Origin: a virus
IMG/VR virus record: IMGVR_UViG_3300023174_000074
Span: 1 to 64,000 of that record
Strand: one strand, 5' to 3'
DNA: 64,000 nt
Within the stretch, counting starts at the first letter, position 1; each line of letters starts with the position of its first letter. Both the position numbers and the translations under genes were made by a program. The notes below the pieces were generated by a model. It was not told the DNA's origin. It made no database searches and saw nothing but the letters and a program-made list of their open reading frames with translations. Of this stretch, positions 12,410 through 61,339 are shown piece after piece.

Positions 12410-12478
12410 AGTTTTATGTTCTGAGATAAAGTTACTAAATTATTTAGATATATAATTAAATAAAAATAACTTTATCTT

Positions 12479-13426
12479 ATGGACTATGAAAAAATATATA
12501 AGAATTTATGTACTTTGTGCCAAACAAAAAATATTAAAGAACGAATATCCAATAGAAATTTGAACGATAAACGCTTAAATGAAGATTACATCTATACTGA
12601 AAAACACCATATTATACCAAGACATGCCGGAGGAAATGATAATGTTCTAAATTTGGCTGAAATGCTACCGGAGGAACATTATATGGCACATTTATTAAGA
12701 TATAAAGCGTATAATGATAGAAATGATTTTTTAGCTATTAGATTTATGGTTAATGGCTATATTAATAAAAAAATATTAGCGGATAAGATCGATCTAAAAT
12801 TAAAAAATAAATTAGCTGCATCATTCAAACAAAATATTGCAATGTTTAGGAAAAACAATTCATGGCATAGCACTGAAGGTATTAAAAATATATCAGAAGC
12901 AAGAAAGGGTACTATGGTAGTTAAAGATAGTATAGAAAATAAAATCATAGGTTCAGTAGATATAAATCACCCTAATATCATATCAGGAAAATGGGTACAT
13001 CATACTAAAGGAAAAATATCGGTAATTTGTAAAAAAACAGGAATTAAAAAAAATATAACAGCTAAGGAATATGAAGATAATAAAGATAATTATGCCTACA
13101 ATGGAGGAAAGGTTAATGGTAAAAATAATCCAAGATTTAGCGGATTTTCCGACGAAGATTTAATTAAAATAGTGTCTGATTTTTCAATTAAAATGGATAT
13201 AGGATTTTTACTTCCATACCGTACTGTAGCAAATCATTATAGAAAATATGAAAAATATGAAAAACTACCAAAATCATTTAGTTCATTTAGATTCAATGGA
13301 TTGGGCGTTGTAGAATTACATAGACTAGCATCAGAAAAAACAGGATTAGAACTTAATATCTATTACTATAATGATCCAAAAATTAAAAACAAAATTAAAA
13401 ACAAAATTAAAAACATATTATGTTAA
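12479..13426 (+). CDS. MobE-like HNH homing endonuclease
   Basis: MDYEKIY...EKHHIIPRHAGGND...NL...EEHYMAHLL. Confidence 0.88.
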   Translation: MDYEKIYKNLCTLCQTKNIKERISNRNLNDKRLNEDYIYTEKHHIIPRHAGGNDNVLNLAEMLPEEHYMAHLLRYKAYNDRNDFLAIRFMVNGYINKKILADKIDLKLKNKLAASFKQNIAMFRKNNSWHSTEGIKNISEARKGTMVVKDSIENKIIGSVDINHPNIISGKWVHHTKGKISVICKKTGIKKNITAKEYEDNKDNYAYNGGKVNGKNNPRFSGFSDEDLIKIVSDFSIKMDIGFLLPYRTVANHYRKYEKYEKLPKSFSSFRFNGLGVVELHRLASEKTGLELNIYYYNDPKIKNKIKNKIKNILC

Positions 13427-14406
13427 AAATAGAATATTTAGAAGAAGAAATACCAGTATACGATATTACTGTTGAAGATAATCATAACTTTTATGCTGAT
13501 GATATTTTAGTGCATAACTGTTCAGAAATTCAATTACCTACGGATTCATTCAATTCCTTTGTGTGCTGTTTAGGTTCTATTAATCTACTGCACTGGGATG
13601 AAATTAAGGAAACCGATGCAATTGAAATTTATACGATGTTCTTAAATGCAGTTATGGACGAATTCATAAACAAGTCATTTAATATGCCCGGGATGAAAAG
13701 AGCATGGAGATTTGCAAATGATCATAGAGCGTTAGGACTTGGAGTACTAGGATATCATTCATTGTTTCAATCTAAACTAATCTCATTCGATTCTCTTAGA
13801 GCAAAGCAGTTAAACCACGAAATATTTTCAATATTAAAAGAAAAAAGTGAAGCGGCTTCAAGATTATTGCATGATGAGAAAGGTTACAAATCAATCAGAC
13901 CCGGATATGCTAATACAACGCTTATCGCAATTGCTCCAACAAAGAGTAGTTCATTCATTCTAGGACAGGTAAGTATGGGAATTGAACCGATTAAATCTAA
14001 TTATTTTATTAAGGATTTGGCGAAATCAAAAACAATTTATAAAAATCCTTTTTTAATCCAAGAGTTAGATAAGTATGACTTAAATACTCCGGAAGTCTGG
14101 GAGAGTATTTTAAAGAGAGATGGATCAGTTCAACATTTGGACTTTCCAACAAAGGGAGTTTTTAAATCATTTATTGAAATTTCTCCAAAGGAGATAATTT
14201 TACAGGCTGCTCAAAGACAAAAGCATATCGATCAGTCACAGTCTCTTAACCTAATGATACACCCTTCAGTGTCAGCAAAAGATATTAATCAATTATATCT
14301 CTATGCGCATGAGGAGGGGATTAAAACACTATATTACCAATTTAGTCAAAGCTCTGCCCAATCTTTTGCTAGGAATATATTGGAATGCTCTAGCTGTGAG
14401 GCTTAA
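13420..14406 (+). CDS. nrdA: split intein C-half (13420-13518) plus RNR large subunit C-fragment
   Basis: VYDITV...NF...LVHN|CSEI; CCLGSINL, RALGLG, APT..SS, DQSQSLN, KTLYY, C-terminal CxxC. Confidence 0.92.
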   Translation: MLKIEYLEEEIPVYDITVEDNHNFYADDILVHNCSEIQLPTDSFNSFVCCLGSINLLHWDEIKETDAIEIYTMFLNAVMDEFINKSFNMPGMKRAWRFANDHRALGLGVLGYHSLFQSKLISFDSLRAKQLNHEIFSILKEKSEAASRLLHDEKGYKSIRPGYANTTLIAIAPTKSSSFILGQVSMGIEPIKSNYFIKDLAKSKTIYKNPFLIQELDKYDLNTPEVWESILKRDGSVQHLDFPTKGVFKSFIEISPKEIILQAAQRQKHIDQSQSLNLMIHPSVSAKDINQLYLYAHEEGIKTLYYQFSQSSAQSFARNILECSSCEA

Positions 14407-14420
14407 AAAATATTACAGAA

Positions 14421-15047
14421 ATGGAAAGAATAAAAAATTTTCAGGATTTTGCTTTAAACGAAAGAGAACTTCCTGATAATCAAGGTAAAATACTGGTTAT
14501 TTTGGGATCACCTGGATCTGGTAAAGGTACATTATCGAAGGAATTGAAAAAAAAATATGATTTTATCCACTTATCAACTGGAGATCTTATAAGAAATTCA
14601 GAAGACGAGGATATTAAAAAAATCATAGATGCTGGTAATTTTTTACCTGACAATATGATGATAAAAATGCTCAGAAAAGAGTTAAGAAAAGTTGATCCTA
14701 GTTCTAATGTTATCCTGGATGGATTTCCTAGAACAATAAAGCAAGCTAAAAGATTAGATTCTCTTTTAGGTAGAATGGGATTAGGTTTAAATCATGCGAT
14801 TTATTTAGACCTCCCCGATAAGGTTGCTAAAGAGAGAATAAAAAGCAGAGCCAAAGAGGAGAACAGAAAGGATGATGCTAGTGAAGAAATTGTAGAGAAA
14901 AGGTTTAAAGAATACCACGAGAAAACATTTCCTCTTTTAGACTTCTATCAAAAAAGTCGTAAGCTTATAAAAATAGAGGCTAACGAGGGTAAGGATAAAG
15001 TTTTAAAACAAGTCAGAGAAAGACTTGGCTTAAAATCCAAAAAGTAA
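14421..15047 (+). CDS. adk: adenylate kinase
   Basis: GSPGSGKGT, HLSTGDLIR, ILDGFPRT, RKDD. Confidence 0.9.
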   Translation: MERIKNFQDFALNERELPDNQGKILVILGSPGSGKGTLSKELKKKYDFIHLSTGDLIRNSEDEDIKKIIDAGNFLPDNMMIKMLRKELRKVDPSSNVILDGFPRTIKQAKRLDSLLGRMGLGLNHAIYLDLPDKVAKERIKSRAKEENRKDDASEEIVEKRFKEYHEKTFPLLDFYQKSRKLIKIEANEGKDKVLKQVRERLGLKSKK

Positions 15048-15057
15048 AATTTAGATC

Positions 15058-15708
15058 ATGTCAGAAAGCATAGCTGGGAATTTTGTGAGGTCTCTAAAAG
15101 AGAAGCTTTCAGAAGAAAAAAATCAAATACAAAGGAAAAGAATCCTATTACAGGATTCTTTTGATATCATTCTCGAAGTGTTTAGAACACATTCGGATCT
15201 CGAGATAAGAACTATTAGGGATTTTGAAACTTCAGAGATATCTTTTTTTGTTGACGTTTACTCACCGTCGGATCAATACGAATCTATAAAAATTGCATTA
15301 GAAAAATCTGGCATTCTAATAAATTCAACAATGCTTGGTGAATATAAGTGCCTGTTTATTGTAGATCTTGAAAATAGATTGATAGCATCAGGGAATCCGC
15401 ATAACATATTCTCTATTGAAATTTTCTCAAAAAGGCTTAGAACTTTTAAGCTTAAAATATCACACTGTGATCCTAATTTTACATATTCTGTTTTTGAAAA
15501 AAATTACCATGAAATAAAATACTGGTATTATGAGAATTGCTCAATAGAGGTTAAATCGATAAGACTTAAGGATTTTGATAGGGATAAGGAAAAAATTAAT
15601 ATATCTGATGATGAAACCAATCATGAGATAGAAATGACATTCAATGAAATAGGTGAGCTAAATAATTTTAATTTATTTCAGAAAAAGGGGAGAAAAAACA
15701 AGAAATAG
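15058..15708 (+). CDS. hypothetical protein
   Basis: 216-aa ORF in operon. Confidence 0.6.
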   Translation: MSESIAGNFVRSLKEKLSEEKNQIQRKRILLQDSFDIILEVFRTHSDLEIRTIRDFETSEISFFVDVYSPSDQYESIKIALEKSGILINSTMLGEYKCLFIVDLENRLIASGNPHNIFSIEIFSKRLRTFKLKISHCDPNFTYSVFEKNYHEIKYWYYENCSIEVKSIRLKDFDRDKEKINISDDETNHEIEMTFNEIGELNNFNLFQKKGRKNKK

Positions 15709-15735
15709 ATCTATAATAATTAAAATATACAACCA

Positions 15736-17001
15736 ATGAATAAATCTAAGAAAAAGGCAGTCCCCATGGGGAAAATAAACCCCATAACTGCATCAATGTC
15801 AAAACCACCATCTAACAGACAAGAGATAACTCTATGCTTGGTTATGATTGTAAAAGATGAGGAAGACACAATAGCCAAATGTTTAAAAGCTGTTGCACCA
15901 TATATTTCATACTGGGTTATAGTTGACACCGGATCAAAGGATAATACTCTAAATGTCATCAGAGAAACGATGGCTGAACTTAATATAGAAGGTGAACTTC
16001 ACGAGAGACCTTGGGTTAACTTCGAAGTTAACAGAACGGAAAGTTTAGAATTAGCAAAAGGCCGATGCGATTATAGATGGATTATAGATGCGGATGATAC
16101 ATTCTACCCGGAATTTCCCGGGACAAATCCATTTGCGGGATTAAATAAAGAGCCGGATGGGTATCAAATCCTTTACAGATTAAACGCTTTACAGTATCAC
16201 AGGGTTCAGATAGTTAAATCTGATCAGGACTGGGTTTATAAAGGTGTTCTGCATGAATATCTGCATTTGGATAAACCGAATATAATACAAGATATAGTAC
16301 CAAACTCTTTTGTTATTGCCGACATCTCACCACTAAAAAGAGCTAACTCATTACAGGAAAAATATGCTAATGACGCTGAAATTCTTGAGAAGGCACTAGT
16401 GGATGAACCAGGTAACACCAGGTATATGTTCTATTTAGCTCAAAGTTATAGGGATTCCGAACAACATGATAAAGCTATCGAAGCCTACGAAAAAAGAATC
16501 AACATGGGGGAATGGCCAGAGGAGGTTTATTACTCTATGTACATGATCGCTAAAATCAAAGAGAAAATCGGAGCATCTAACGAGGAAGTTACCGAGTGCT
16601 ATTCTAGAGCTTGGGAATACCGTCCGGAAAGGCTAGAAGCGGTTTTCCATACGATGAGAAAACTTAGGGATCAAAAAAGATTCTTAATAGCATTTGCATA
16701 CGGAGACGTTGCTATAAAAACTAGGGGAACCGGTGATATCCTATTTGTAGAGCCGGAAATTTGGCAGTGGAGACTTTTAGATGAATATTCATTATGTGCT
16801 TATTATATAGGAAACCCTGATCTATCGATGGAAAAAACATCAGCAATCATAAATGCACCATTCTTTAATTCATTACCTGAAGAGGAGAAGGTAAGATTAA
16901 AGAAGAATATGGATTTTTATAAAAAGGGATCAGATGAGAAAATGAAGAAAATCCAGCAAATGCAAGCAGCTGAAAAAGCTCAGAAAATGCAAAAAAGATA
17001 A
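15736..17001 (+). CDS. GT2 glycosyltransferase with TPR repeats
   Basis: LVMIVKDE, VDTGSKD, IDADD, GVLHE; TPR-like FYLAQSY. Confidence 0.88.
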   Translation: MNKSKKKAVPMGKINPITASMSKPPSNRQEITLCLVMIVKDEEDTIAKCLKAVAPYISYWVIVDTGSKDNTLNVIRETMAELNIEGELHERPWVNFEVNRTESLELAKGRCDYRWIIDADDTFYPEFPGTNPFAGLNKEPDGYQILYRLNALQYHRVQIVKSDQDWVYKGVLHEYLHLDKPNIIQDIVPNSFVIADISPLKRANSLQEKYANDAEILEKALVDEPGNTRYMFYLAQSYRDSEQHDKAIEAYEKRINMGEWPEEVYYSMYMIAKIKEKIGASNEEVTECYSRAWEYRPERLEAVFHTMRKLRDQKRFLIAFAYGDVAIKTRGTGDILFVEPEIWQWRLLDEYSLCAYYIGNPDLSMEKTSAIINAPFFNSLPEEEKVRLKKNMDFYKKGSDEKMKKIQQMQAAEKAQKMQKR

Positions 17002-17028
17002 GATATATATAGAAAAAATATTAAATTA

Positions 17029-17565
17029 ATGAAGCATTTACTAGAATACGAATCGTACGAAAATCAGATAAACGAAGGCGCTATCCCTGTTTATGACGAG
17101 GTTGAATTTTTTAAAGATACCAAATCTAAGCCAGAAATGGAGATTAGATTTACCCAAATCCCTGCTGTTGTCGAGGGTCTTTTAGATAAAGTTGAAACCG
17201 GCGAATACTCTTCAGTTACTGTTACTGCAGATTTACCGTCTCAGGGTAAAAACGCTCCGGAATACGTCAGAGACATAATGACAAAGGAGAGAGAAAGAAT
17301 GGCAAAAAGACAACAAGCTATTCACGGTAGCAGAATCGAAAGAGCTGATAGACCAGAAGGTGAAGAATATAGGGATGAAATCAACGTTTTTGTTGACTCT
17401 GAATATACAGTCGAAGGTGTTGTTAAAGAGGACGGAAAAGATTATTTAATATGTATACCAGCTTCTTTTGTAAAAAAGGTTAAAAGAGAGCCAAGTTTAA
17501 AAGACTACTATACTGTTAAGATAGCACCACAGCAAATTATCGAGATTTATTTCACTAGAGCTTAA
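17029..17565 (+). CDS. hypothetical protein with capsid-targeting-like N-terminus
   Basis: MKHLLEYESYENQINE; GATATATA at 17002. Confidence 0.65.
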   Translation: MKHLLEYESYENQINEGAIPVYDEVEFFKDTKSKPEMEIRFTQIPAVVEGLLDKVETGEYSSVTVTADLPSQGKNAPEYVRDIMTKERERMAKRQQAIHGSRIERADRPEGEEYRDEINVFVDSEYTVEGVVKEDGKDYLICIPASFVKKVKREPSLKDYYTVKIAPQQIIEIYFTRA

Positions 17566-17590
17566 TTACTTTATCGCTTTAAATATATTA

Positions 17591-17623
17591 AACCCCAGTA
17601 TTTTTCAAATATTGGGGTTTTTT
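17591..17623 (+). terminator. intrinsic terminator
   Basis: AACCCCAGTATTT...AAATATTGGGGTT plus T run. Confidence 0.8.
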
Positions 17624-17689
17624 GTTGAAACTTTGACCGATCCGGTCATATAACTTTGGCCGGATTAGCCGGACTTAATTATATAAAAT

Positions 17690-19420
17690 ATGAGTAAAGT
17701 TAATAAAACCATTGAAGTCCTTACAGATTTTGAACACATTATAAAAAGACCAACAATCTATGTTGGTAGTGTAAAAAGAAGCGAGGAGACACTTCCTATA
17801 ATTGAAGCAGGAATCATTAAAAGTGTCTTAAAAGAGCATTCAGTTGGAATGTATAAGTTGTTTGATGAAGTGTTTTCTAACTCAGTAGACGAAGCAAAAA
17901 GGATGTCTACGGCAATGAAGAAAATAATCGTCGATGTTGATATAAAGGAGAACTCAGTTTCTATTACAGATACTGGTGACGGATTTACCAACGGATCAGC
18001 AATAAACAAAAAGAGCGGGCTTAGCAATATCGAGACCGCTGTTTCAATGCTTAGAGCAGGATCAAATTTCGATAATGACTCAATTACGGAAACCCTTGTA
18101 GGAACTAATGGTATGGGTGTTAGCTTGGTTAATGCCTTATCTAATGTGTTTGAGATAGAAACTGCTAACTCGAAAGAGGTTTATTTGCAGACCTGGAAAA
18201 CTTTTAAGGCATCAGCTGCTAAGGTTACTTCAAAGGCAAAAAATAGACAAACAGGAACCCGTGTAACATTTACCCCCAACAACCAAGTTTTTGATAATTC
18301 CAAATGGGATTATCAGACAATAAAATCATATCTTTGTTTAAAGAAAAGAGTACTTGAGACCGAAGCTAAAACCGCAAACCTCAAGATAGATTTCACCTGG
18401 AACGGTAAAGCTGAAAACATAACAAGTTTACTTTCCCCTGATTGGACAGCAAAAACCCCTATTGGGGAAATTCTGATTTGGGAGAAGACCACAGAATCAG
18501 GATCATTCTCTTTTGTCAACAGTGCATTATGTACGGGTATCCATCAGAAGATAATCCTAGATAGAATCAATGGGCAACTGGAGGATTCTTTAGGTCACCA
18601 CTTCTATGACACTTTGATTATTCTAAATCTTTCTCCTGGTATAGTTCGATTCGGTGACCAGAATAAGACAAAGTTCGTTTCAAAGAGAGAAGAAGTGGAA
18701 CCAACAATTGCAAAACATTTTGATCCAATTTTAGGAAGATTCTTCAAGAGCGAAGTTTATAAGAACATCAAGAAGGCAGTTGATGCTAGAAAGAAAGAAA
18801 CAGAGTTAAAGAAGATTAGAAGGGATAAGAAATCAATTAGAATAAAACAATCGAATAAGTATTTTCCTTCAGCATCCTCCAGGCCAGAAACATTATTTAT
18901 TGTAGAAGGATTATGTATAGATGAAAATGAAAAAATAAATATATGGAGGGAAGGAAATCTTATAGAGACGACATTAAGAGATGTTATAATAGGCGATGAG
19001 GTGGTAACGCATGCTAATAGAATTAGAAAAATAGTAAATAAGCAGAGAAAATTAAAGGAATGTGTTTCTATTAAATTATCCGACGGTACTGTTATAAAAC
19101 AGCCTAAGACTCATCAATATTACACGTATAATAAAATCACAAAAGACTTCTCATTTAAAAGGATTGATCAAATTGACATTTCTCACGATTGCTTGGTTAA
19201 ATCCAATCTCGGCAGCTTTATAGGAACACTAGAGGTTGTTGATTTTGCTAAGTCAGGGGATGAAAAATATCCTAATATTATATTTCTAGAGGATAATTCT
19301 TGGTATCAATTCAGCGATACCCATAAATATTGTGTTTATGATATAAAAAGCTCTGGGTTTACTATGGAATTAGGTAAGGATATTTCAATTGGCAATCTTA
19401 TATGTGTTTTCGATTTTTAA
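17690..19420 (+). CDS. type IIA topoisomerase ATPase subunit (GyrB/gp39-like) N-fragment plus split intein N-half (18914-19420)
   Basis: EHIIKRPTIYVG, EVFSNSVDE, DTGDG, GTNGMG GHKL motifs; TOPRIM LFIVEGL|CIDE. Confidence 0.9.
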   Translation: MSKVNKTIEVLTDFEHIIKRPTIYVGSVKRSEETLPIIEAGIIKSVLKEHSVGMYKLFDEVFSNSVDEAKRMSTAMKKIIVDVDIKENSVSITDTGDGFTNGSAINKKSGLSNIETAVSMLRAGSNFDNDSITETLVGTNGMGVSLVNALSNVFEIETANSKEVYLQTWKTFKASAAKVTSKAKNRQTGTRVTFTPNNQVFDNSKWDYQTIKSYLCLKKRVLETEAKTANLKIDFTWNGKAENITSLLSPDWTAKTPIGEILIWEKTTESGSFSFVNSALCTGIHQKIILDRINGQLEDSLGHHFYDTLIILNLSPGIVRFGDQNKTKFVSKREEVEPTIAKHFDPILGRFFKSEVYKNIKKAVDARKKETELKKIRRDKKSIRIKQSNKYFPSASSRPETLFIVEGLCIDENEKINIWREGNLIETTLRDVIIGDEVVTHANRIRKIVNKQRKLKECVSIKLSDGTVIKQPKTHQYYTYNKITKDFSFKRIDQIDISHDCLVKSNLGSFIGTLEVVDFAKSGDEKYPNIIFLEDNSWYQFSDTHKYCVYDIKSSGFTMELGKDISIGNLICVFDF

Positions 19421-19455
19421 GATCGAGGGAGATATATAAAATAAAGCCTTCGACT

Positions 19456-20850
19456 ATGAAAAAAATAAAATATGAAGTTAAAATAGGTCAATTTATTACA
19501 GATTTTAAAATTTCCGATCTTAATGATTCGTACAATGATCAAAAGATTCTTAGATACATGAAAGCATCTCTAATGAAAAGCGGGATTAATTATAATGATT
19601 TAATTAAAGAAAATCTAAATATTGACGTTGGAAAATGCCCGTTCTGTGGATCCGATAGTAAATATGAGATTTCATATTTAATAGATAGGCCTAAAAAAGT
19701 ACTAGATATACTCGGTATAGAGTACATAGTAAAAGGTGGAATGATAAATTATCATTGTAAGAGCGGGAAAAATAATTGTTCAGGCAGCCGTCTAAATTCA
19801 AATTCTATAGAATATATTTCTAATGCTTTTAAGATAAGCAAAGAAAAAGCTAGAGCATATATTATTGACCGTAATAAATCCCCCTTTTATGCGAAAAATC
19901 ACGATAGCAAGGAAGATTACAAGAAATTTCAAACCCGAAATTTGGATTGGTATATCTCTAAATATGGAGATTATGAGGGTAGATCAAGATATCAGAATTT
20001 TAAGGATAAAGTATCCAACGGGAATACAAAGGAATCTATAATAGCAAACCACGGAATAGATTCTTATAATGATATGATTAGAAGAAAGAAGGTTTGTACA
20101 ATTGAGCATTTTATTTCTAAATATGGCGAAGAATTAGGAAAATCTAAATTTGATGAATACAAGAAGTCTTTAGGGCTAACAAGAGATAATTATATAAAAA
20201 AATTTGGAAAGGATTCTTGGGATAAAAGAGCAGAAATCATAAAATATAAGAAATCTCTAGAATTCTATATTCAGAAGCTTGGAGAAGAAGAGGGGCGTAA
20301 AGATTTCAGAACTTTAAGGGAATCCTATAGCTTTAATAAGGAGAAGTATATTGAGAAGTACGGAGAAGAAAAATGGATAGAAAGATATAAGAATTTTAAT
20401 CTAAATTTTTATAGTAAAGAGGCATCGGTTTTCCTTAATAAGCTATTGGGTATGCTTATAGATCTAGAATTGCCGTTGAACAATATTAAGATGGAAAAGG
20501 ATGAGTTTTTTCTATGGGATACCGAATACAGAAGGATTTATTTTTATGATTTGTATTTCGAATGCTTTTCTAAAAAGATAATTGTTGAATATGATAATGA
20601 GTTTTGGCATCCAAAAAACGAAAATGATACCAGTGCTTGGGATAAACTTAAAATTGATCATAAATTTACAAAATCAGAAAAGATAGAGTATGACGAAAGA
20701 AAGAGAATGTTTGCTAAGTATAAGGGATATGATATAATAAATATTTCATACTCAGGACAAAAAAACCCACTAAGAAAAAATAACGAGGAACTTTGGGAGC
20801 CCTTATTGATAGAAGTTTTAAACAAAATAAAAAATATTATAAGATGTTAA
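19456..20850 (+). CDS. Vsr-like homing endonuclease with KYG repeats
   Basis: Repeated I.KYG helices; YSKE..F, FYDLY...IIVEYDNEFWH; likely ATG 19456. Confidence 0.8.
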   Translation: MKKIKYEVKIGQFITDFKISDLNDSYNDQKILRYMKASLMKSGINYNDLIKENLNIDVGKCPFCGSDSKYEISYLIDRPKKVLDILGIEYIVKGGMINYHCKSGKNNCSGSRLNSNSIEYISNAFKISKEKARAYIIDRNKSPFYAKNHDSKEDYKKFQTRNLDWYISKYGDYEGRSRYQNFKDKVSNGNTKESIIANHGIDSYNDMIRRKKVCTIEHFISKYGEELGKSKFDEYKKSLGLTRDNYIKKFGKDSWDKRAEIIKYKKSLEFYIQKLGEEEGRKDFRTLRESYSFNKEKYIEKYGEEKWIERYKNFNLNFYSKEASVFLNKLLGMLIDLELPLNNIKMEKDEFFLWDTEYRRIYFYDLYFECFSKKIIVEYDNEFWHPKNENDTSAWDKLKIDHKFTKSEKIEYDERKRMFAKYKGYDIINISYSGQKNPLRKNNEELWEPLLIEVLNKIKNIIRC

Positions 20851-21551
20851 CAATAGAACAAGAGAATTTTTTCCAGATTGTAGAAATTGAAAGTATATCC
20901 GAATCATTAGAAGTTTTAAATTGCATAGATTTAACAGTAGAGGATGACGAAAGCTTTGTTATCGGAAATGGCATTATTTCACATAATTCAGCTATGGGGT
21001 CTATACTACAGAAAAGAGATCCTAAGAAAGAAGCAGTCTATGCTCTAAAAGGAAAGATCAAGAATGCAAGGAGTTTATCAGATCTTTCAGACAACAGGGA
21101 GATATTAGAATTAATGCAGATCCTAAATCTAGATCCGGAGGGGCAAAATATACAATGTCCATTTGAGAGAGTCGTTATAGCTACCGATCAGGATCCTGAC
21201 GGAGCTCACATTACATCACTATTAATAAACCTATTTTATCTTTGGTTTCCCTGGATGATTAAGCAAGGTAGAATCCAATTCTTAGAAACACCATTGGTTA
21301 CCGTTGGGGATAAGGCTAAGAAATATTTTTATTCACTAGAGGAGTTTAAAAAAGGTACGGGAAGATCAGATAAAGGTAATGTCAGATACCTTAAGGGATT
21401 GGGATCTCTATCGTTGGAAGACTGGGATCATGTTATGAAGAATAAAAAAATAACAGTTCTAGTTGAGGACAAGAAAACTAAGTATCATTTAGATATGGCT
21501 TTTGGTAAGTCCTCAATGGAAAGAAAAAAGTGGTTAAGCTCAGTTGTTTAA
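20844..21551 (+). CDS. split intein C-half (20844-20987) plus topoisomerase II TOPRIM fragment (gp60-like)
   Basis: DLTVEDDESF...ISHN|SAMG; LKGKIKN, TDQDPDGAHI, YLKGLGS. Confidence 0.9.
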   Translation: MLTIEQENFFQIVEIESISESLEVLNCIDLTVEDDESFVIGNGIISHNSAMGSILQKRDPKKEAVYALKGKIKNARSLSDLSDNREILELMQILNLDPEGQNIQCPFERVVIATDQDPDGAHITSLLINLFYLWFPWMIKQGRIQFLETPLVTVGDKAKKYFYSLEEFKKGTGRSDKGNVRYLKGLGSLSLEDWDHVMKNKKITVLVEDKKTKYHLDMAFGKSSMERKKWLSSVV

Positions 21552-21586
21552 TTTTTAATCCCGAGGGATTTTATTATATTTACCGA

Positions 21587-22507
21587 ATGGAAAGAAGATA
21601 TGGTTATTGTTGTATAAATTTAAGTTTAGCTAAGGACAAAATCTCTACAAATAGAGGTATGGTCAAAAGGACATTTGAAGAAAAAGGTCTTCCTTATGCT
21701 TCCGAACTTGCACTAAAGAATGTTCAAGATCTCAAGAAAATCTTAGAGTGGAATAACGCTAACGACATTAGGATGTTCAGAATGTCAAGTGATATATTTC
21801 CCTGGTGTTCTGAATATGAAATAAGTGATCTTCACGATTACCAGGAGATCTCTCAAATTTTAAAGTCATGCGGGGATTATGCAAAGGAAACTAATCAGAG
21901 GATAACATTCCATCCATCTCCATATGGGGTTTTAGCATCAGAGAATCCTTCAGTTGTAAAAAAAGCACTAAAGGAGCTTAATCAGCATGGCGAGATATTC
22001 GATATTATGGGATTAGATAGAAATCACTTTTATCCTATAAACATACACGTAAACACTACAAAGCCAACCAAAGAAGCTGCTGCTATCAGATTCTGCGAAA
22101 ACTTCGAAATGTTATCGGAATCAACAAAATCTAGATTAGTCGTTGAGGTTGATGACAAGAAATCACAATATAATGCAGTTGATCTTTACCGTATGGTTTA
22201 CTCCAATATTAATATTCCAGTTACCTTCGACTACCTTCATAATAAATGTAATCCCTCACACTTAGACGAGAAACAAGCTCTTGCACTTTGTTTATCAACT
22301 TGGACAAAAGGAATCCCCGCTATTACACACTACTCGGATTCTAAAAAACTTTATGAGGATGAAACATCTAAGGAAGTTGCACACACTGACTGGATATGGG
22401 GTAATGTTGAAACTTATGGACTTGATTTCTCTATAGAATTTGAGGTAAAAATGAAGGATTTGGCTTTACTCAAATACATAAAAGAAAATAAAAAAATATT
22501 ATCATAA
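21587..22507 (+). CDS. uvsE: UV damage endonuclease
   Basis: GYCCIN, FRMSSDIFP, RITFHP, NIH, FDYLH, HYS, AHTD, EVKMKD. Confidence 0.9.
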   Translation: MERRYGYCCINLSLAKDKISTNRGMVKRTFEEKGLPYASELALKNVQDLKKILEWNNANDIRMFRMSSDIFPWCSEYEISDLHDYQEISQILKSCGDYAKETNQRITFHPSPYGVLASENPSVVKKALKELNQHGEIFDIMGLDRNHFYPINIHVNTTKPTKEAAAIRFCENFEMLSESTKSRLVVEVDDKKSQYNAVDLYRMVYSNINIPVTFDYLHNKCNPSHLDEKQALALCLSTWTKGIPAITHYSDSKKLYEDETSKEVAHTDWIWGNVETYGLDFSIEFEVKMKDLALLKYIKENKKILS

Positions 22508-22746
22508 TGAACGAAGAAGTACAGAACTTTGAGAATATGATTCTCGATAAAGAAAACACACAAGAGATTAAATATAATATCGATAGAGATATAGAGGCTT
22601 CAGTAAAGTATGAATATCTTTGTGAGAGTTTCGGTAAAGAAAAAGCAAATTCTGCTATTAAAGAAGCCGGATTGGAAATGGCAGATATCTATGATCTTGA
22701 TAATTTTAACATCATAGCAGAAATACTAAACAAATCTTCTATATAA
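22507..22746 (+). CDS. hypothetical protein
   Basis: TAATG-coupled ORF. Confidence 0.55.
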   Translation: MNEEVQNFENMILDKENTQEIKYNIDRDIEASVKYEYLCESFGKEKANSAIKEAGLEMADIYDLDNFNIIAEILNKSSI

Positions 22747-22749
22747 GAT

Positions 22750-23091
22750 ATGCACAGTGGCGATTTTTACATGGGGGATTTTATGATGGGCGGAAAGCAT
22801 CCACAATTTGAAATCATAAAAAAACATATAGAGAGGGCAGTGCAAGATCTTTTTATAGATTCTCTAAGAAGCAAAACCAATGACTTACTTTACGTGTTCG
22901 ACGAAGAATCACAGATAGACGGATTCACTGAAAGAATCCTTAATTACTGGGAGGAATTAGAGAATTATGAAGTTTGTAAAGAAGTCGTCGACTTAAGTAA
23001 TGATTTTAAGGAGAGATGGAAAAGCAGAGAATATTTAGAAGAATCAGCAGGAATTTCCCGACTAAAAAACCTTTTTAAATCTGAAGAATAA
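22750..23091 (+). CDS. hypothetical protein with UVR-like motif
   Basis: [14 protein letters not shown]. Confidence 0.55.
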
Positions 23092-23095
23092 TAAG

Positions 23096-24139
23096 ATGAA
23101 AGATTACTATCAAATACTAGGAGTTACCAAGGGGGCTTCGCTAGAAGAAATAAAAAAGGCCTACCGAAAGTTGGCTATAAAATATCATCCGGATAAAACT
23201 GGAAATGACCCAGCAGCGGAGGAAAAATTCAAAGAAGTCTCCGAAGCTTATGCTACACTATCAGACCCAAATAAAAAGAGCAAGTACGATAACCCCAATA
23301 CATTTGGTGGGATGGGTGGGGGAAATCCATTTGAACAATTCTGGAATGGAACGAATCCTTTCCAAAGTGGTGACTTCTCTTCTTTCTTTAACGGGCAAGG
23401 CAGAAGAACACAGGAGCCAATGATAAACAAAGGGAGAAACATAAACACTATAGTGGCTTTAACACTAGAAGAAATGATGACTGGTACAAATAAGAAGATC
23501 AAGCTTAATAGAAGAATTCATTGTGATCCATGCAAAGGCACAGGAGCAGAGAATGCAGATGTTATAAATTGTTCTGCATGCGGGGGAATAGGTAGGGTTA
23601 ATAAAACTGTTCAGTACCAATTTGGTGAAATGGTTACACAAGAAACATGTAGAGCTTGTGGAGGTCATGGATCTAAACCTAAAAAATCTTGCAATGAATG
23701 CTCAGGCACTGGAACTATTAGAAAAGACGAAGAGGTTGACTTCAATATACCTAAAGGATCTATATCCGGTGTTTCGTACGTACTTGCTGCTAAGGGAGAT
23801 TGGGCTAAGGCTCCTTCCAACCCAGGGGATCTCGTTATAACAGTAGAAGAATATGCTCATCCTGTTTATCGCAGAGATGGTGTAAATTTAATAAATGAAA
23901 AATATATTTCATTTAAGGAAATTTGTCTAGGTACCGAAATAGAATTTCCAAACTTAACTGGATCTAGCTTTAGAATAAAAATACCACCAGGAACACAGCC
24001 AGGCAAAATATTTAGATTAAAAGGTAAGGGGTTACCAGAATTTAATGGATTTGGAGCTGGTGATATACTGGTCCAGGTAAATGTAAAAATACCAGAATTC
24101 CTTACCGAAGAACAAATGAAAGCAATCGAACATTTTTAA
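23096..24139 (+). CDS. dnaJ: DnaJ chaperone
   Basis: J domain with HPD, G/F region, four CxxCxGxG repeats, C-terminal domain. Confidence 0.95.
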
Positions 24140-24142
24140 ACT

Positions 24143-24460
24143 ATGACTATACTATTTTTATTTCTCGGATGGTCCTTAACATCTCTAATAGTTAACGGAT
24201 CTATATTTGCACCATTTAGAAACTATCTGCTGGTAAAATCGCCATTCTTTGGTAAACTAGTATCTTGTATACAATGTACTGGACTATGGGCAGGTGTTAT
24301 AATCTTTGTTCCGCTCCTAGCATTGGATGAGGTTTCCCAAATATCAAGTTACGAATGGATAGGCTATGTTGCTTATCCAATAATACAAAGCGGTGTGGCA
24401 GTAATATTAGAATCATTCATAATTTATTTAGTTAAAGGATCAAGAAGCAATCAACAATAA
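24143..24460 (+). CDS. DUF1360-like membrane protein
   Basis: IFAPFR...LVSCIQCTGLW, hydrophobic segments. Confidence 0.6.
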   Translation: MTILFLFLGWSLTSLIVNGSIFAPFRNYLLVKSPFFGKLVSCIQCTGLWAGVIIFVPLLALDEVSQISSYEWIGYVAYPIIQSGVAVILESFIIYLVKGSRSNQQ

Positions 24461-24469
24461 AAATCTATA

Positions 24470-24976
24470 ATGTCGACAAACTTAAACATATCAGACCAGA
24501 TAAATCAACAATACAGAACTTACGCATTGTATGTTTTGCAAAGTAGAGGTATACCAAATTTCTATGATGCTTTAACTCCTGTTCAAAGGTTAATCCTAGA
24601 AAATTCTCCAGGTAAATTCAACAAGACTATTGGCTTGGTCGGAGAGGTAATTAAAACAGGGCTATATCACCACGGGGATTGTTTTTTATATAACACAAAG
24701 ATAAACCTAGCAGACGGAACACAGGTTTCGATAGGAGATTGGGCGGAAAAATTTCCGGATATTAAATTATTCGTATATTGCGTAGACGAAAACGGAGAAA
24801 AAACAATATCTTTAGGGCATTCCCCAAGGGTGGGTCAGATTACTGATGAAATGTTTGAGATCGAACTTGAAAATGGGGAGATATTTAAGTGCACAAAAAA
24901 TCACCCGTTTCTAACTAATAGAGGATGGATTAAAGCTGAGGATTTATTAGGTTCGGATGAGATAGTAAGCATCTAA
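24470..24976 (+). CDS. topoisomerase II cleavage subunit (GyrA/gp52-like) N-fragment plus split intein N-half (24680-24976)
   Basis: YALYV..RGIP..DALTPVQR, YHHGD|CFLY; block B CTKNHPFLT. Confidence 0.9.
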   Translation: MSTNLNISDQINQQYRTYALYVLQSRGIPNFYDALTPVQRLILENSPGKFNKTIGLVGEVIKTGLYHHGDCFLYNTKINLADGTQVSIGDWAEKFPDIKLFVYCVDENGEKTISLGHSPRVGQITDEMFEIELENGEIFKCTKNHPFLTNRGWIKAEDLLGSDEIVSI

Positions 24977-25013
24977 TAAATTTTTATCATCACGGGATAT
25001 ATAAAAATAAACC

Positions 25014-25916
25014 GTGATGATAAAGAAATGCTTATATTGTTCTAATAGATTTAAACAAAAAACTAGTTTTGTGAAATACTGTTCACCTAAATGCAAGTCT
25101 AGAGATAGATTTATAAAAATCCAATATGGAGAAAAATTTTTTAATATCTGGAAAGAAAATGCAATAAAATATCCAGATTTTTATAGTACGATAAAAAGAC
25201 CAAAGGATAGATTTAAAAATAAATGTCTAATGTGCGAAAAAGAATTTATCGAATTTAGAAAGTGCTGTAGTAGTGAATGTTCCCTGAAATTAAAAAAACA
25301 GACAACATTTAATTCTACTGGATCTGAGCATAATTTTGCAAAAAATTCAACATCAAGAACAGAGATGGATGATAATCTATTTAAAAATTTCGGAATAGTA
25401 AATATCTTTCAGAGGGAGGATGTAAAGTTGAAATTAAAAAATACGTGGATAGAAAATCACGGGGTTTCAAATCCTACCATTAATGCAAGCATTAGAAATA
25501 AGGTAAGAAAAACTAATGAAAATTCGGGGCGTTGGTTAAAAGCACACGAAAAAGATGAATTTGAGCTATATTGTTATCACGTAAAACAATTTACTAATTG
25601 GAATATGAATAGATTTGCATTAAAACTATGGGGGAATGAATTTTATAAGAATTGGGGATTTTATGAAAATCATCTAGATCATATATTTTCCAAAAAAGAA
25701 GGGTTTATGCAAAAAATCCCTGCTAATATAATAGGTAGCTTTGTAAATCTTAGAATGCTTCCACGTAAGGAAAATTTATCAAAGGGTATAAAATGTGATA
25801 TTACTAGCGAAGATTTATATAATCGTTATTTATTATTTGAAGAAGAGAATCCCGAAATATTAAGAGAAATAGAAACTATATTTAAAGAATCATTAAAATA
25901 TGTCAATAAAAATTAA
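25014..25916 (+). CDS. homing endonuclease (Cys clusters plus C-terminal HNH-like domain)
   Basis: CxxC/CSxxC motifs; HLDHIFS...NLRML...NLSKG; lies between intein halves. Confidence 0.75.
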   Translation: MMIKKCLYCSNRFKQKTSFVKYCSPKCKSRDRFIKIQYGEKFFNIWKENAIKYPDFYSTIKRPKDRFKNKCLMCEKEFIEFRKCCSSECSLKLKKQTTFNSTGSEHNFAKNSTSRTEMDDNLFKNFGIVNIFQREDVKLKLKNTWIENHGVSNPTINASIRNKVRKTNENSGRWLKAHEKDEFELYCYHVKQFTNWNMNRFALKLWGNEFYKNWGFYENHLDHIFSKKEGFMQKIPANIIGSFVNLRMLPRKENLSKGIKCDITSEDLYNRYLLFEEENPEILREIETIFKESLKYVNKN

Positions 25917-27219
25917 ATCAATAAAAAAAATTATCCTGGATTCTCCAAAGCCTTTTTATGATATAACGGTAGAAAAATATGCAAATTTTTCTATTGGTAA
26001 ATCTGGTATAGTAGTTCACAATTCATCTCTGTCCGGTGCTATATCAAAATTAGCTAGGCCTTTTGGCTGTGCTTTTAGCGTTCTTGAAGGTGATGGATTT
26101 TTTGGTTCACCCGTTAATCCAAGTCCATCTGCTCCCAGATACACGTCGGTTAAGATCAATAGCAGGATCAAAGATTTTTTATTCAAAAACTATGATCTTA
26201 ATGACAAGAACGAAGAGGGTGGACACGATTGGCTTCATGTTGAAGTTCCTATTGGATTACTAACTCACGTTGTTGGTATTGCAGTAGGGTACAGAAGTAA
26301 CATACTTCCTAGAAAATTAGAGGATATCATAGAGTATCTAAACGGATCTCCAAAATTGCTTAAGCCCTATTTTAAAGATTTCTCTGGTAAGATATCAAAA
26401 TTTAGAAATGAGGATAATACGTGGTTATTCGAAAGCGGATTTGATGTTGATGCTAAGAAAAAAACAATACACATCTATGATTTACCACCAGTAATGAGAT
26501 ATGATAGCTTTATTAATAAGCTAGATTCTAAATTAGAAAACTCTGGATGCGAATACAGAATAGAAAACAGATCACAAAGTAAGTGCGATCTGATAGTCTC
26601 ATTAAGAGGAATGGATAATGCAAGGTTTACCGAAATTGTTGAAATCATATCAAGACTATGTAAGATTATAGTTACCGAGGATGTTATATTTATTCGTGAC
26701 GGTGGAGTTATGGAATTCACTTCTGTCAAAGAGTACTTAGATCATTTCAAGGGTCATCTTGAATTGGTTAAATTAAAAAGGTTATTGAAGGATCTTAGCG
26801 ACTATTCTAAAGAGCTACAGTTTTTAGAAGCAAAACTAAAGTTTCTTAATTTCATGATATCTAAAAAAAGAACAAACGATGAGATCATAGCATTTCTCGG
26901 AGAATTTGAAAATTGGATATCACAGAGATTGCAGAGGATTGAAATAATAAGGCTAAGCTCTGACCACATTAAACAAACCGAGATTGATATCAAAGGGTTA
27001 AAAGAAAAAATAACCGAAGCTAAAAAGCTTGTAAAGGATCAGGAAAAAATACACAAAGAAGCGGCTAAGAAAATACAGGCATTGGGTAAAATTAGGTCAT
27101 TCAAACCCATGATAAATCTATTCGAAACAAATCAAATAGAAGGTATAGAGGTTTATCAGGTACCTGATGAAGAGGATACTGTAATTTCGGATGAAAATTT
27201 AGAAGAAAACGAAATTTAA
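25900..27219 (+). CDS. split intein C-half (25900-26022) plus topoisomerase II cleavage subunit C-fragment
   Basis: FYDITV...NF...VVHN|SSL; GDGFFGS, SAPRYT catalytic Tyr, GIAVGY; no GyrA beta-pinwheel. Confidence 0.9.
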   Translation: MSIKIKSIKKIILDSPKPFYDITVEKYANFSIGKSGIVVHNSSLSGAISKLARPFGCAFSVLEGDGFFGSPVNPSPSAPRYTSVKINSRIKDFLFKNYDLNDKNEEGGHDWLHVEVPIGLLTHVVGIAVGYRSNILPRKLEDIIEYLNGSPKLLKPYFKDFSGKISKFRNEDNTWLFESGFDVDAKKKTIHIYDLPPVMRYDSFINKLDSKLENSGCEYRIENRSQSKCDLIVSLRGMDNARFTEIVEIISRLCKIIVTEDVIFIRDGGVMEFTSVKEYLDHFKGHLELVKLKRLLKDLSDYSKELQFLEAKLKFLNFMISKKRTNDEIIAFLGEFENWISQRLQRIEIIRLSSDHIKQTEIDIKGLKEKITEAKKLVKDQEKIHKEAAKKIQALGKIRSFKPMINLFETNQIEGIEVYQVPDEEDTVISDENLEENEI

Positions 27220-27256
27220 TTGCAAAATCAATCTAGAACTATTAAATAATAAGAAA

Positions 27257-28018: not shown

Positions 28019-28031
28019 TAATTAATAATTA

Positions 28032-29672: not shown

Positions 29673-29689
29673 TACAAATTATATAATAT

Positions 29690-36995: not shown

Positions 36996-37052
36996 GACGC
37001 GATTTCGTACTTTAGTTTAGATATATAAACTAAACTAAACTAAAGTACAGAA

Positions 37053-57246: not shown

Positions 57247-57252
57247 CCTGAC

Positions 57253-57307: not shown

Positions 57308-57339
57308 GATGTGCTTTTATTAACCGAAAATAAATTATT

Positions 57340-58702: not shown

Positions 58703-58877
58703 AATTATTATTGGACTTCCGCTATGTCCAGTTCCGATGTTTTTAGGAACTTGGATATGGCTATTTTCAAACACTAAAGATTCATGGATAGAGAGTATTG
58801 GGTATCTTACTTGGAATTTAGCATCGGGAGATTGGGATAAATTACCAGAATAAAAACAATTAAAATAAAAAATAAAC

Positions 58878-59108: not shown

Positions 59109-59118
59109 AACAAAAATT

Positions 59119-59541: not shown

Positions 59542-59755
59542 TCTAGATAACAAACTACCCTGTCAAAAAGAATATGTTTTTGACAACAGAGAAGTTAAAA
59601 CCTCATTACCCGGGGCTGAACTATCTGATGTTGATAGTTTGAAATATTTTTTTCAAAAATACATATCTTCAGTTGAAAATACAAAACCAAGTCAAAGTAT
59701 GGCGAATATACTGAAAGCATGGATTGATATTATACAGCAAAAATCAAATAAATAA
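59534..59755 (+). CDS. hypothetical protein
   Basis: ORF in operon. Confidence 0.5.
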   Translation: MNNLDNKLPCQKEYVFDNREVKTSLPGAELSDVDSLKYFFQKYISSVENTKPSQSMANILKAWIDIIQQKSNK

Positions 59756-59757
59756 AA

Positions 59758-60399
59758 ATGAATAAATTAGATAAAGATTATTGTAACCTACTTCAAGATA
59801 TCTTGGATAATGGTGTACAAAAAGAAACTAGAAATGGTGGTACTTTGAGTGTATTTGGAAGACAAATACGTCACAAAATGAGCGATGGGTTTCCGTTGCT
59901 AACTTCAAAACACATAAAGTTCGATTTGATCGTTTCCGAGCTCATTTGGTTCCTTCAAGGTCGAACTGATTTAAGATGGTTACTGGAGCAAGGAAATACT
60001 ATCTGGGTGGGGGACGCTCACAAGCGATTTATATTAGCAACGTCTGAAGATGAATATCAAGAGCCGACAGAAGATGCAAGAAAAAGATTTATTGATAAAA
60101 TCAAAAATGATAAAGAATTTAGTGATAGATTCGGGGATCTTGGTCCAATTTACGGATTTCAGTGGAGAAATTGGGGTAAAGATTTTAAACAAGTATTAAA
60201 TGAAACGGGAGATAAGGTTTATGATATAACAACAACTGGTATAGACCAAATCGCAAACCTAATCCACGACCTTAAAACAAATCCAGACTCAAGACGATTA
60301 ATGGTTAATGCTTGGAACGTTGCAGATTTGCCGGTTACTGATTATAAAACAGACGACGAACTCTATCAAGATTACTTAAAAGATATAGGAAAATCATAA
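59758..60399 (+). CDS. thyA: thymidylate synthase N-terminal fragment with 22-aa added tail
   Basis: TRNGGTLSVFG, FPLLT, ELIWFL.G, DLGPIYGFQWR, DQI, PDSRRLMVNAWN; stops before PPCH. Confidence 0.9.
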   Translation: MNKLDKDYCNLLQDILDNGVQKETRNGGTLSVFGRQIRHKMSDGFPLLTSKHIKFDLIVSELIWFLQGRTDLRWLLEQGNTIWVGDAHKRFILATSEDEYQEPTEDARKRFIDKIKNDKEFSDRFGDLGPIYGFQWRNWGKDFKQVLNETGDKVYDITTTGIDQIANLIHDLKTNPDSRRLMVNAWNVADLPVTDYKTDDELYQDYLKDIGKS

Positions 60400-60448
60400 A
60401 AACTATTACCCTCCTTAGATATATAAATAAAAAGGAGGTAATACCATT

Positions 60449-61339
60449 ATGATTATATATAAGACAACAAATTTAGTGAACGGTAAGATTTACATAGGAC
60501 AGGACAAATATAACAATCCAAGATATCTTGGATCTGGAAAAATTTTACATCTTGCTTTTAAAAAATATAGCGTTGAAAACTTTATCAAAGAAATAATTGA
60601 AGAGTGTGAATCAAAAGAACACTTGGATGAAAGAGAAAGGTATTGGATAAACTTTTACAAGTCAACTGATAGAAATATTGGATATAATATAGCGTTAGGT
60701 GGAAATGGCGGGGACACTATTTCAAATCATCCGGATAAAGATTTAATTAGACAAAAACATTCAGAATGGATGCAAGAAAACAATCCAACCAGAGGTAGAA
60801 AGAGGAGTGAAGATGAAATGGAAAGATGGAAAGATTCTTTTGTTGGAAAATATAAAGGTGAAAACAGTCTAAACTTTGGAAAAAAACATAATGGTGATTC
60901 AAAGATTAAAATGTCAGAAGCTAGAAAAAAATGGCATGAAACCTTAACAGAAGAAGAAAGAAATAGCATTAGCGATAAAATAAGCAAATTAAATAAAGGT
61001 AAAGAAGGTTATTGGAAAGGAAAAGATAATACTAATCATTCCGACTGGATGAAACAAAATAACCCGATGAAAGGTAGAACCCACACTGATGAAATTAAGC
61101 AAAGAATATCTGATGCTAATAAAAAACCTAAGTCTGATGAAACGAAAAGAAAACTTAGTGAAGCTAACAAAGGTAAAAAACCAGGAAACATAGTTAAGGT
61201 TGAAATAGGGGGAATTGTTTATGAAAGTCTAACAGAAGCTTCTATTAAAACTGAGATAAATTTATCAACATTAAGAAATCGAATTAAATCAAAAAATGTT
61301 AAATACTTAAATTACAAAATATATGAATCAGCTAAGTAA
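60449..61339 (+). CDS. GIY-YIG homing endonuclease with NUMOD3 repeats
   Basis: IIYKTTNLVNGKIYIGQ, YLGSG, RERYWI, GYNI..GG.GG; NUMOD3 and terminal NUMOD1/HTH-like region. Confidence 0.9.
   Translation: MIIYKTTNLVNGKIYIGQDKYNNPRYLGSGKILHLAFKKYSVENFIKEIIEECESKEHLDERERYWINFYKSTDRNIGYNIALGGNGGDTISNHPDKDLIRQKHSEWMQENNPTRGRKRSEDEMERWKDSFVGKYKGENSLNFGKKHNGDSKIKMSEARKKWHETLTEEERNSISDKISKLNKGKEGYWKGKDNTNHSDWMKQNNPMKGRTHTDEIKQRISDANKKPKSDETKRKLSEANKGKKPGNIVKVEIGGIVYESLTEASIKTEINLSTLRNRIKSKNVKYLNYKIYESAK

Follow-up and report, generated by a model that had tools for sequence, protein, structure and literature searches.

A promoter-like word set in hairpins that reach the start codons of homing nuclease genes in a large-phage contig

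From which RNAs is a homing nuclease translated when its gene lies within or beside a gene of the phage that carries it? The question is raised by IMG/VR record IMGVR_UViG_3300023174_000074, a 126,808 nt contig with an estimated completeness of 46%, the first 64 kb of which (64,000 nt) form the window. PHROG and Pfam scans for homing nucleases over 82 window open reading frames (ORFs) identified six such genes and no others, located within the genes for the RNR large subunit, a topoisomerase II large subunit (TopoL), a GyrA/ParC-like subunit (TopoA), PolB and thymidylate synthase (td), and immediately 3′ of a phage tmRNA gene. The first-pass annotation of this DNA had proposed that all six share a cassette in which a promoter is enclosed by a hairpin covering the nuclease start region. 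The 9-nt word GATATATAA and the accompanying inverted repeats were confirmed before all six genes with exactly the coordinates and sequences given there; the proposal held for the word at all six loci, whereas the stem was at background level at PolB and moderate at TopoL.

The word lies 32 (RNR), 25 (TopoL), 18 (TopoA; 21 to an in-frame ATG), 26 (PolB), 33 (tmRNA) and 31 (td) nt from the nuclease start, and the 5′ arm of the repeat begins right after the upstream stop codon or tmRNA end. Minimum free energy (MFE) folds showed that 9-24 pairs enclose the word, that the 3′ arm begins 2-18 nt past it, and that at least two of the three start codon bases are paired at 6/6 sites, in agreement with the proposed coverage of the start region. 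In the RNR leader (12418-12484, plus strand, as are all six), GATATATAA (12447-12455) is apical, the 3′ arm enters the ATG at 12479, and there are 24 enclosing pairs including 2 G·U. The TopoL leader hairpin (19405-19472; word at 19431-19439) has a core stem of 19423-19429 with 19447-19453 and 21 pairs, 3 of them G·U, and the TopoA hairpin (24981-25026; word at 24996-25004) has 15 bp with both candidate start codons (25014 and 25017) within its 3′ arm. The PolB leader (29652-29700) forms a weak outer stem of 8-9 bp with 3 G·U pairs and an inner A-U stem that includes the word itself (29664-29672), the TAA of which doubles as the stop codon of the upstream ORF. Adjacent to the tmRNA gene, a hairpin of 20 pairs (36999-37057) holds the word in its loop (37020-37028) and pairs the A and U of the ATG at 37053, and in the td leader (60392-60454; word at 60418-60426) an outer helix pairs the ATG at 60449. 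The td 5′ arm is an anti-Shine-Dalgarno sequence (60404-60416) and its 3′ arm contains AAGGAGG (60432-60443); the other leaders bury an A-rich sequence lacking a Shine-Dalgarno motif together with the AUG. The arm sequences are unrelated among the six sites while the geometry is repeated, and the hairpins contain nine G·U pairs in all. Direct reading found no T-run after the stem at any of the six leaders, and a terminator scan, whose loop limit of 8 nt excludes such stems, listed none; because a U-tract is absent, these hairpins are not intrinsic terminators.

In order to set the hairpins against background, all 41 sites of the 8-mer GATATATA (the word without its final A) on the contig and 201 callable gene starts were used as controls. 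Pairing energy was calculated between the 30 nt 5′ and the 40 nt 3′ of the word (flank pairing), which was preferred to enclosing-pair counts in MFE folds of 93-nt windows as the latter were too noisy; opening energy was taken as the cost of opening positions −18 to +6 in the read-through RNA, and z-scores were computed from 200 dinucleotide shuffles. The TopoA, tmRNA, RNR and td hairpins had z-scores of −7.6, −8.1, −5.3 and −3.9, respectively (equalled in 0/200 shuffles each), compared with −2.3 for TopoL (3/200) and −2.0 for PolB (10/200). By flank pairing, the tmRNA, TopoA, td, RNR and TopoL sites occupied ranks 1-5 of 41 (−25.8 to −15.7 kcal/mol), with the best of the 32 non-nuclease sites at −10.0 kcal/mol and PolB at rank 16 (−7.9 kcal/mol). 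The difference from the non-nuclease sites was significant for the six window sites (Mann-Whitney, p = 0.0003) and for all nine nuclease sites of the contig (p = 0.009), which include three further nuclease genes outside the window. Opening energy ranked TopoA (20.3 kcal/mol), tmRNA (17.5), td (15.3) and RNR (14.5) first to fourth of the 201 starts, relative to a median of 4.2 and a maximum of 14.0 kcal/mol for non-nuclease starts; TopoL ranked 45/201 and PolB 51/201. The hairpin is unambiguous at four sites, moderate at TopoL and indistinguishable from background at PolB. Across the contig, the promoter word is universal (9/9 nuclease genes) and a strong hairpin is present at just four to five of the nine.

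In the 45 nt before gene starts, no 8-mer is more frequent or more enriched than GATATATA (30/200 genes, 24-fold), and at 34 of its 41 sites a same-strand ORF of 50 codons or more begins within 50 nt, compared with 15% of random positions (p about 1e-21). In the window, GATATATAA occurs 9 times against 2.55 expected, a count reached in 1/100 shuffles. No conserved −35 element was found at the GATATATA sites, and a scan for the sigma-70 consensus gave no excess (74 and 80 found, compared with 88.5 and 86.0 in shuffles). The distance from word to start is bimodal, with 3-5 nt at nine sites (for example window 34231 and 8027 (minus strand), and contig 71345, 102171, 120248 and 125385) and 13-30 nt at most others. 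By its distribution GATATATA behaves as a promoter word that works without a −35 element, and, if it is a promoter element, an ATG 3-5 nt past it suggests leaderless mRNAs that start 4-6 nt after the word. It is the only promoter-like word that was recognised on the contig. GATATATA also precedes the NTP pyrophosphohydrolase-like gene heading the nrd cluster (9527), 17029, an ATP-grasp gene, an endolysin gene and many small genes, and was seen before none of the contig ORFs annotated as head or tail. The T4-type late word TATAAATA is depleted in the window (7 compared with 14.1 expected) and occurs among the six leaders in td only, by overlap (60422); a T4-type late promoter at the nuclease leaders was therefore rejected in favour of GATATATA(A). 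The further suggestion of the first-pass annotation, that the nucleases are translated late, was not borne out, as nothing in the sequence supports a timing and the word stands before many non-structural genes, including 9527. In a metatranscriptome run (X1), about a tenth of the sampled words were present, only as contigs from a relative; over 11000-30999 the run gave 22 short pieces, eight of them listed, with no informative ends, and a joint between 19607 and 29668 (depth 2) was deemed an assembly artefact between two similar leaders. This run, the only RNA data set found, reveals neither starts nor expression.

Relatives in IMG/VR were found for four of the six nuclease queries. The GIY-YIG family of the tmRNA-adjacent gene comprises 26 loci plus extra tandem copies. 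Its copies start about 54 nt past the 3′ end of a tRNA or tmRNA gene, the tRNAs belonging to nine or more species, and are found singly or in tandem within large tRNA arrays (loci L024, L025, L028, L029, L032 and L036); the occurrence of the same leader behind so many tRNA species indicates that the leader travels with the nuclease gene. A covariance model was used to align the leaders of 24 copies (23 distinct; E ≤ 1e-4), in which 79.7% of cells are paired compared with 43.3% or less after sliding of the partner column, although fitting the alignment to the structure biases such counts in the model's favour. Two-sided changes are present in 8/20 pairs, the observed score was reached in 0/500 shuffles, and the raw sequences display replacement of whole stems. 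Pairing varies least at the A and the U of the start codon (23/23 and 19/23, respectively), and the base of the stem is conserved in sequence, beyond pairing. At two positions G·U pairs occur in 16/23 and 7/23 copies, a frequency that fits sense-strand RNA and not DNA. This pattern of compensatory change indicates that selection keeps the stem.

The loop of the same family retains GATA(T/A/C)ATA in 23/24 copies while other loop bases vary, the remaining copy (L036:648) reading T-ATAAATA. Five records that carry such copies (G001-G005, behind L032, L036, L037, L016 and L026) form two groups by their enriched 8-mer, GATAAATA or GATATATA. In the three records with GATAAATA in the loop, GATAAATA occurs 31, 11 and 9 times, its reversed control 3, 2 and 2 times, and GATATATA 1, 0 and 2 times; in the two with GATATATA in the loop, GATATATA occurs 43 and 93 times, the reversed control 24 and 53 times, and GATAAATA is not in excess. 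Judged by these counts, the loop word follows the resident genome's own enriched word. RNR-type relatives retain the hairpin; in one of them (L010), whose nuclease is 52% identical, an unrelated stem of 16 bp occurs in the same geometry, without GATATATA. Among td-type relatives, 4/7 have the word and an 8-12-bp anti-Shine-Dalgarno stem, with one compensatory pair. The PolB-type L071 is identical to the window, and the distant PolB-type L080 and L083 have clear hairpins with the word ATAAATA.

These observations are probably best explained by a start-occluding hairpin that is relieved by an internal promoter. Each nuclease leader consists of a 5′ arm, the 8-9 nt putative promoter word and a 3′ arm that runs into the start codon or within a few bases of it. 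Read-through RNA from the upstream gene (the N-terminal half of RNR, of either topoisomerase subunit, of PolB or of td, or the tmRNA) would contain both arms, and would fold and bury the start region, so that no nuclease would be translated from the message of the host gene. Transcripts from the internal promoter, predicted to start in the loop 4-6 nt past the word, would lack the 5′ arm and so be open to translation, and would also carry the downstream half of the gene. Folding with and without the 5′ arm, which the first-pass annotation had put forward as a check, agrees with this prediction: the opening cost falls from 6-20 to 1-3 kcal/mol when the RNA begins 6 nt past the word, and lies at 0.9-2.7 kcal/mol without the 5′ arm at all nine nuclease genes of the contig.

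Several results weigh against this explanation or narrow it. The PolB stem ranks with ordinary sites in flank pairing and TopoL exceeds background only moderately. An appreciable possibility, which we lean against but slightly, is that the inverted repeat at PolB, and possibly at TopoL, arose by chance in A/T-rich sequence, in keeping with the PolB z-score, shuffle count and ranks given above, with the loss of the PolB outer stem in the near relative L069, and with the TopoL shuffle count and opening rank; however, the geometry at both matches that of the strong sites, TopoL takes rank 5/41 by flank pairing, and the distant PolB-type relatives have clear hairpins of their own. The nuclease genes at 69977, 84424 (minus strand) and 98989, beyond the window, have GATATATA upstream and ordinary flank pairing (−4.3 to −7.5 kcal/mol), and since 69977 and 84424 follow co-directional genes without a strong stem, a hairpin cannot be predicted from read-through alone. 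Searches of IMG/VR gave no relatives of the TopoA nuclease or of the TopoL nuclease. Within the tmRNA-type family, the covariance-model bias noted above applies, five of the 24 copies (three from L029, L037 and L036:648) have the lowest fit to the stem model (30.9-45.8 bits), and the stems of four of these (three from L029, and L037) are much weaker by eye. The three more distant of the seven td-type relatives have neither the word nor the anti-Shine-Dalgarno arm. Lastly, since GATATATA also stands before the gene that opens the nrd cluster (9527), a temporal switch from one promoter class to another, which is central to the T4 model, is not evident here.

Since host-gene clusters may share the promoter word, the gate may sort transcripts by their source and not from early to late time. 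An extended version of the start-occluding hairpin can be offered as a tentative and somewhat doubtful proposal: GATATATA would be the promoter, lacking a −35 element, of a large-phage lineage that probably infects Bacteroidota and makes several leaderless mRNAs, mobile cassettes would re-tune the loop word (GATAAATA or GATATATA) under selection on the hairpin, and the gate would serve as a transcript-source insulator. The nuclease would then be translated from the RNA of its own promoter alone and never from abundant host-gene, tRNA or tmRNA precursor RNA. Six leaders with unrelated stems on one contig form a natural test set for insulation by transcript source or by timing.

Conserved RNA stems may also have a different job, such as a site for processing by an RNase III-type enzyme, or a 3′ stabiliser by which the upstream message (a gene half, or a tRNA or tmRNA precursor) is protected or kept apart from that of the nuclease, the burial of the start being incidental. 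The stems of 20-24 pairs at four sites would suffice for a double-strand RNase, every hairpin starts a few bases past an upstream stop codon or tRNA/tmRNA 3′ end, and covariation shows that pairing matters, not why. Such a role is nevertheless unlikely, as the 3′ arm reaches the start codon everywhere and the least variable pairs of the tmRNA-type stem are those that involve the A and U of the ATG, the promoter word in the loop would be left unexplained, and the missing U-tract sets the stems apart from intrinsic terminators. Slightly less probable again is that GATATATA is no promoter, or is silent in these leaders, with the hairpins keeping nuclease translation permanently low on all transcripts. 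The word consists of A and T only in an A/T-rich genome, its reversed control is fairly common in two relatives (the 24 and 53 given above, compared with 43 and 93), and a toxic nuclease might plausibly be down-tuned for good; however, the 24-fold enrichment, the strand-coherent placement just 5′ of ORFs and the bimodal spacing, the retention of the word in the loop while other loop bases vary, and its switching along with the resident genome's enriched word all argue for a promoter. That the palindromes act as DNA, as a promoter-flanking operator to which a repressor or the nuclease itself binds, or as a cruciform, has a documented parallel in I-TevI autorepression at an operator overlapping a late promoter (in the available sections of PMC2988022) and some support from the sequence-conserved base of the tmRNA-type stem, but is very improbable given that the unrelated arms of the six sites offer nothing to a common repressor, that G·U pairs (nine in the window hairpins, and those of the tmRNA-type family) are meaningless in duplex DNA, where they leave C·A mismatches on the other strand, and that the 32 non-nuclease sites have no such palindromes.

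The start-occluding hairpin with an internal promoter is not a new design. In the available sections of Dassa et al. 2009 (Nucleic Acids Res 37:2560, PMC2677866), fractured genes are described in which a free-standing homing nuclease gene lies between the halves of a split intein, 15/16 nuclease leaders having an RNA hairpin upstream of the start, ten of them with TATAAATA, and the hairpins are read as sequestering the ribosome binding site in the manner of Aeh1 mobE. As far as those sections go, the two sets share the order of N-intein half, nuclease gene (Vsr-like, GIY-YIG) and C-intein half, the overlap of the nuclease 3′ end with the downstream start, the hairpin 5′ of the nuclease start, often with a promoter word, and host genes for replication and nucleotide metabolism. 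They differ in that the loop word here is GATATATA(A) and theirs the T4-type TATAAATA, that the arms here are unrelated whereas two conserved arm motifs are reported there, that HNH-type nucleases too occupy split inteins here, and that four such genes lie on one large-phage contig here and on short marine read assemblies there.

The T4 I-TevI and Aeh1 mobE precedents cited by the first-pass annotation were found to be as stated there, the available sections of Edgell, Gibb and Belfort 2010 (Virol J 7:290, PMC2988022) describing hairpin control of I-TevI, I-TevII, I-TevIII, segB and Aeh1 mobE. According to those sections, the hairpin in T4 and Aeh1 sequesters the ribosome binding site or start on upstream-derived transcripts, and a promoter in or beside it yields RNA unable to form it; the same is predicted here from sequence alone. 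T4 segB lies in a tRNA cluster, as the GIY-YIG family here lies next to tmRNA and tRNA genes, and the td nuclease resembles I-TevI in domain content. The T4 switch, as described there, operates between early or middle and late promoter classes with mapped starts, unlike the single promoter-like word here; a Shine-Dalgarno sequence is present in the td leader only, the other leaders burying the start codon itself and an A-rich leader; and td is split here without a detectable intron. In the available sections of Crona et al. 2011 (Nucleic Acids Res 39:1381, PMC3045599), Aeh1 nrdA is split by mobE into a gene in pieces with no intron or intein. Compared with that account, a free-standing nuclease gene likewise divides td into two ORFs, without an intein and with short fragment tails in a mobile block, the host gene being td here and nrdA there. 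A moraphage paper (PMC12619734) pairs homing nucleases with antitoxins; the word "intein" does not occur in its main text and hairpins are not mentioned in its available passages. Within a limited literature collection, no published description of the promoter-in-hairpin nuclease design in huge, jumbo or Lak phages was found.

As the basic mechanism is already known, the finding is mainly confirmatory. With it, the control design of T4-type phages and of marine read assemblies is extended to another lineage of large phages, in which the promoter word differs. What is new is the lineage, the word, the covariation evidence, the tracking of the resident genome by the loop word, and the concentration of five split host genes on one contig, four of them split by inteins. 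Covariation across 24 natural copies supports selection on the hairpin itself, and such evidence was not seen in the available sections of the earlier papers.

Four of the window nucleases (RNR, TopoL, TopoA and PolB) are flanked by split-intein halves, a setting that the first-pass annotation overlooked. On the plus strand, the RNR large subunit is encoded at 11342-12409 and 13420-14406 around its nuclease gene (12479-13426), the topoisomerase II large subunit at 17690-19420 and 20844-21551 (nuclease 19456-20850), the GyrA/ParC-like subunit at 24470-24976 and 25900-27219 (nuclease 25014-25916), and the C-terminal half of PolB at 28965-29672 and 30829-31809 (nuclease 29690-30847). The N part of the Pfam Intein_splicing profile (positions 3-94) was matched at the end of the upstream ORF in RNR, TopoA and PolB, and the C part (118-155) opens the downstream ORF in all four, all matches being below the curated cut-off (E 1e-6 to 2e-3); for TopoL the N-intein part was assigned from reading of the junction alone. 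Position 1 of each intein is Cys or Ser, the end is His-Asn followed by Cys or Ser, and the junctions interrupt host-enzyme catalytic motifs. Between the end of the nuclease gene and the start of the fragment that follows there is an overlap of 7, 7, 17 and 19 nt at the four intein loci, and of 17 nt at td. The four split inteins (RNR, PolB and both topoisomerase subunits) provide candidates for natural trans-splicing pairs. PolB is encoded in three pieces (8095-9492, 28965-29672 and 30829-31809), the N-terminal piece, with the exonuclease and the beginning of the polymerase domain, lying 19.5 kb 5′ of the middle piece with no intein at the break, and the middle and C-terminal pieces being connected solely via the split intein. 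PHROGs 2062 and 1918 match the PolB halves separately, so that a two-gene PolB is a recurrent phage arrangement.

The td gene is broken by its nuclease gene into 59758-60399 and 61323-62042 without an intein. An Rfam search, which may miss introns with large ORFs, found no group I intron at the gathering score and none at E ≤ 10 over 60200-61600, and each td fragment is a complete ORF with a start and a stop of its own; an intron-encoded nuclease was accordingly left unsupported. The fragments bear short tails of about 21 and 32 residues, and the tail of the N-fragment, the only one compared, is kept in 7/7 td-type relatives. Both tails fall in a block that is 70-96% identical to L038, compared with 20-81% for the remaining td sequence. 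This block (about 60232-61463) spans the hairpin and both fragment tails, and the td nuclease and its L038 counterpart share 91% identity, compared with 55-57% for the td halves. By analogy with Aeh1 NrdA, these may be assembly tails carried in by the mobile element. Uninterrupted alleles, of RNR in L043 (167-1870) and of the PolB C-half in L007 (5383-5925), both with no intein or nuclease, indicate that the insertions are polymorphic.

Of the families across which the design was proposed to recur, GIY-YIG was assigned to two genes (37053 and 60449) and HNH clearly to one (12479); the Vsr-like assignment has weak statistical support (E about 0.03), and HNH for the TopoA nuclease is a lead. The free-standing RNR nuclease (12479-13426, plus strand, as for all six) matches PHROG 655, homing endonuclease (1e-22), and Pfam HNH weakly. 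The free-standing, putatively Vsr-like nucleases of TopoL (19456-20850; PHROG 22677) and PolB (29690-30847; PHROG 22677, 5e-45, and PHROG 3339) share a similar C-terminus with each other and with the 69977 nuclease; a 13-member profile of this family matches just three Vsr chains in PDB, weakly (E 0.028-0.036), and in Pfam the family has a weak REase_MTES_1575 match alone. The TopoA gene (25014-25916) encodes a probable homing nuclease of the DUF7487 type with an HNH-like motif by eye. The tmRNA-adjacent gene (37053-37895) encodes a free-standing, SegE-like GIY-YIG nuclease (PHROG 314, 3e-36; weak Pfam SegE_GIY-YIG), and the td gene (60449-61339) an I-TevI-like GIY-YIG/NUMOD3 nuclease (Pfam NUMOD3, 9e-17, GIY-YIG and I-TevI_DNA-bd). 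PDB sequence searches with the four unassigned nucleases singly gave nothing usable, with chance-level matches including photosystem CP47. A seventh candidate, 21530-22507, was rejected as a homing nuclease; it encodes a UvdE UV-damage endonuclease (Pfam UvdE, 2e-46) and comes directly after the C-terminal topoisomerase fragment. Elsewhere on the contig, back-to-back opposite-strand pairs of GATATATA (98959/98977 and 125368/125385) form palindromes serving divergent genes, one of which pairs precedes the HNH nuclease gene 98989 without an enclosing hairpin.

The window has a G+C content of about 33% and genes nearly all on the plus strand. Its PolB N-terminal piece is nearest to those of uncultured huge phages (460-735 kb) and Prevotella Lak phages (30-39% identity), and a megablast search with 8 kb of the window against a phage collection gave zero matches. 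The tmRNA gene (36616-36996, plus strand), immediately 5′ of the fifth nuclease gene, was detected by Rfam (RF00023, 48.1 bits, E 6e-16), although ARAGORN reported neither tRNA nor tmRNA in the window. Intrinsic terminators are present at 17590-17620 (a 14-bp stem and a T-run) and at 4395-4430 (a G+C-rich stem and a T-run, just 5′ of the GATATATA at 4431), indicating that the phage employs ordinary terminators, unlike the nuclease hairpins; the former is strong, so that TopoL is not fed from the GATATATA copy at 17002. A RimK-like ATP-grasp gene lies at 32281-33741 (Pfam RimK, 7e-35), and a transposase-family gene (PHROG 2577, 8e-39) is located at 125935-126348 on the minus strand, beyond the window and near the distal contig end.

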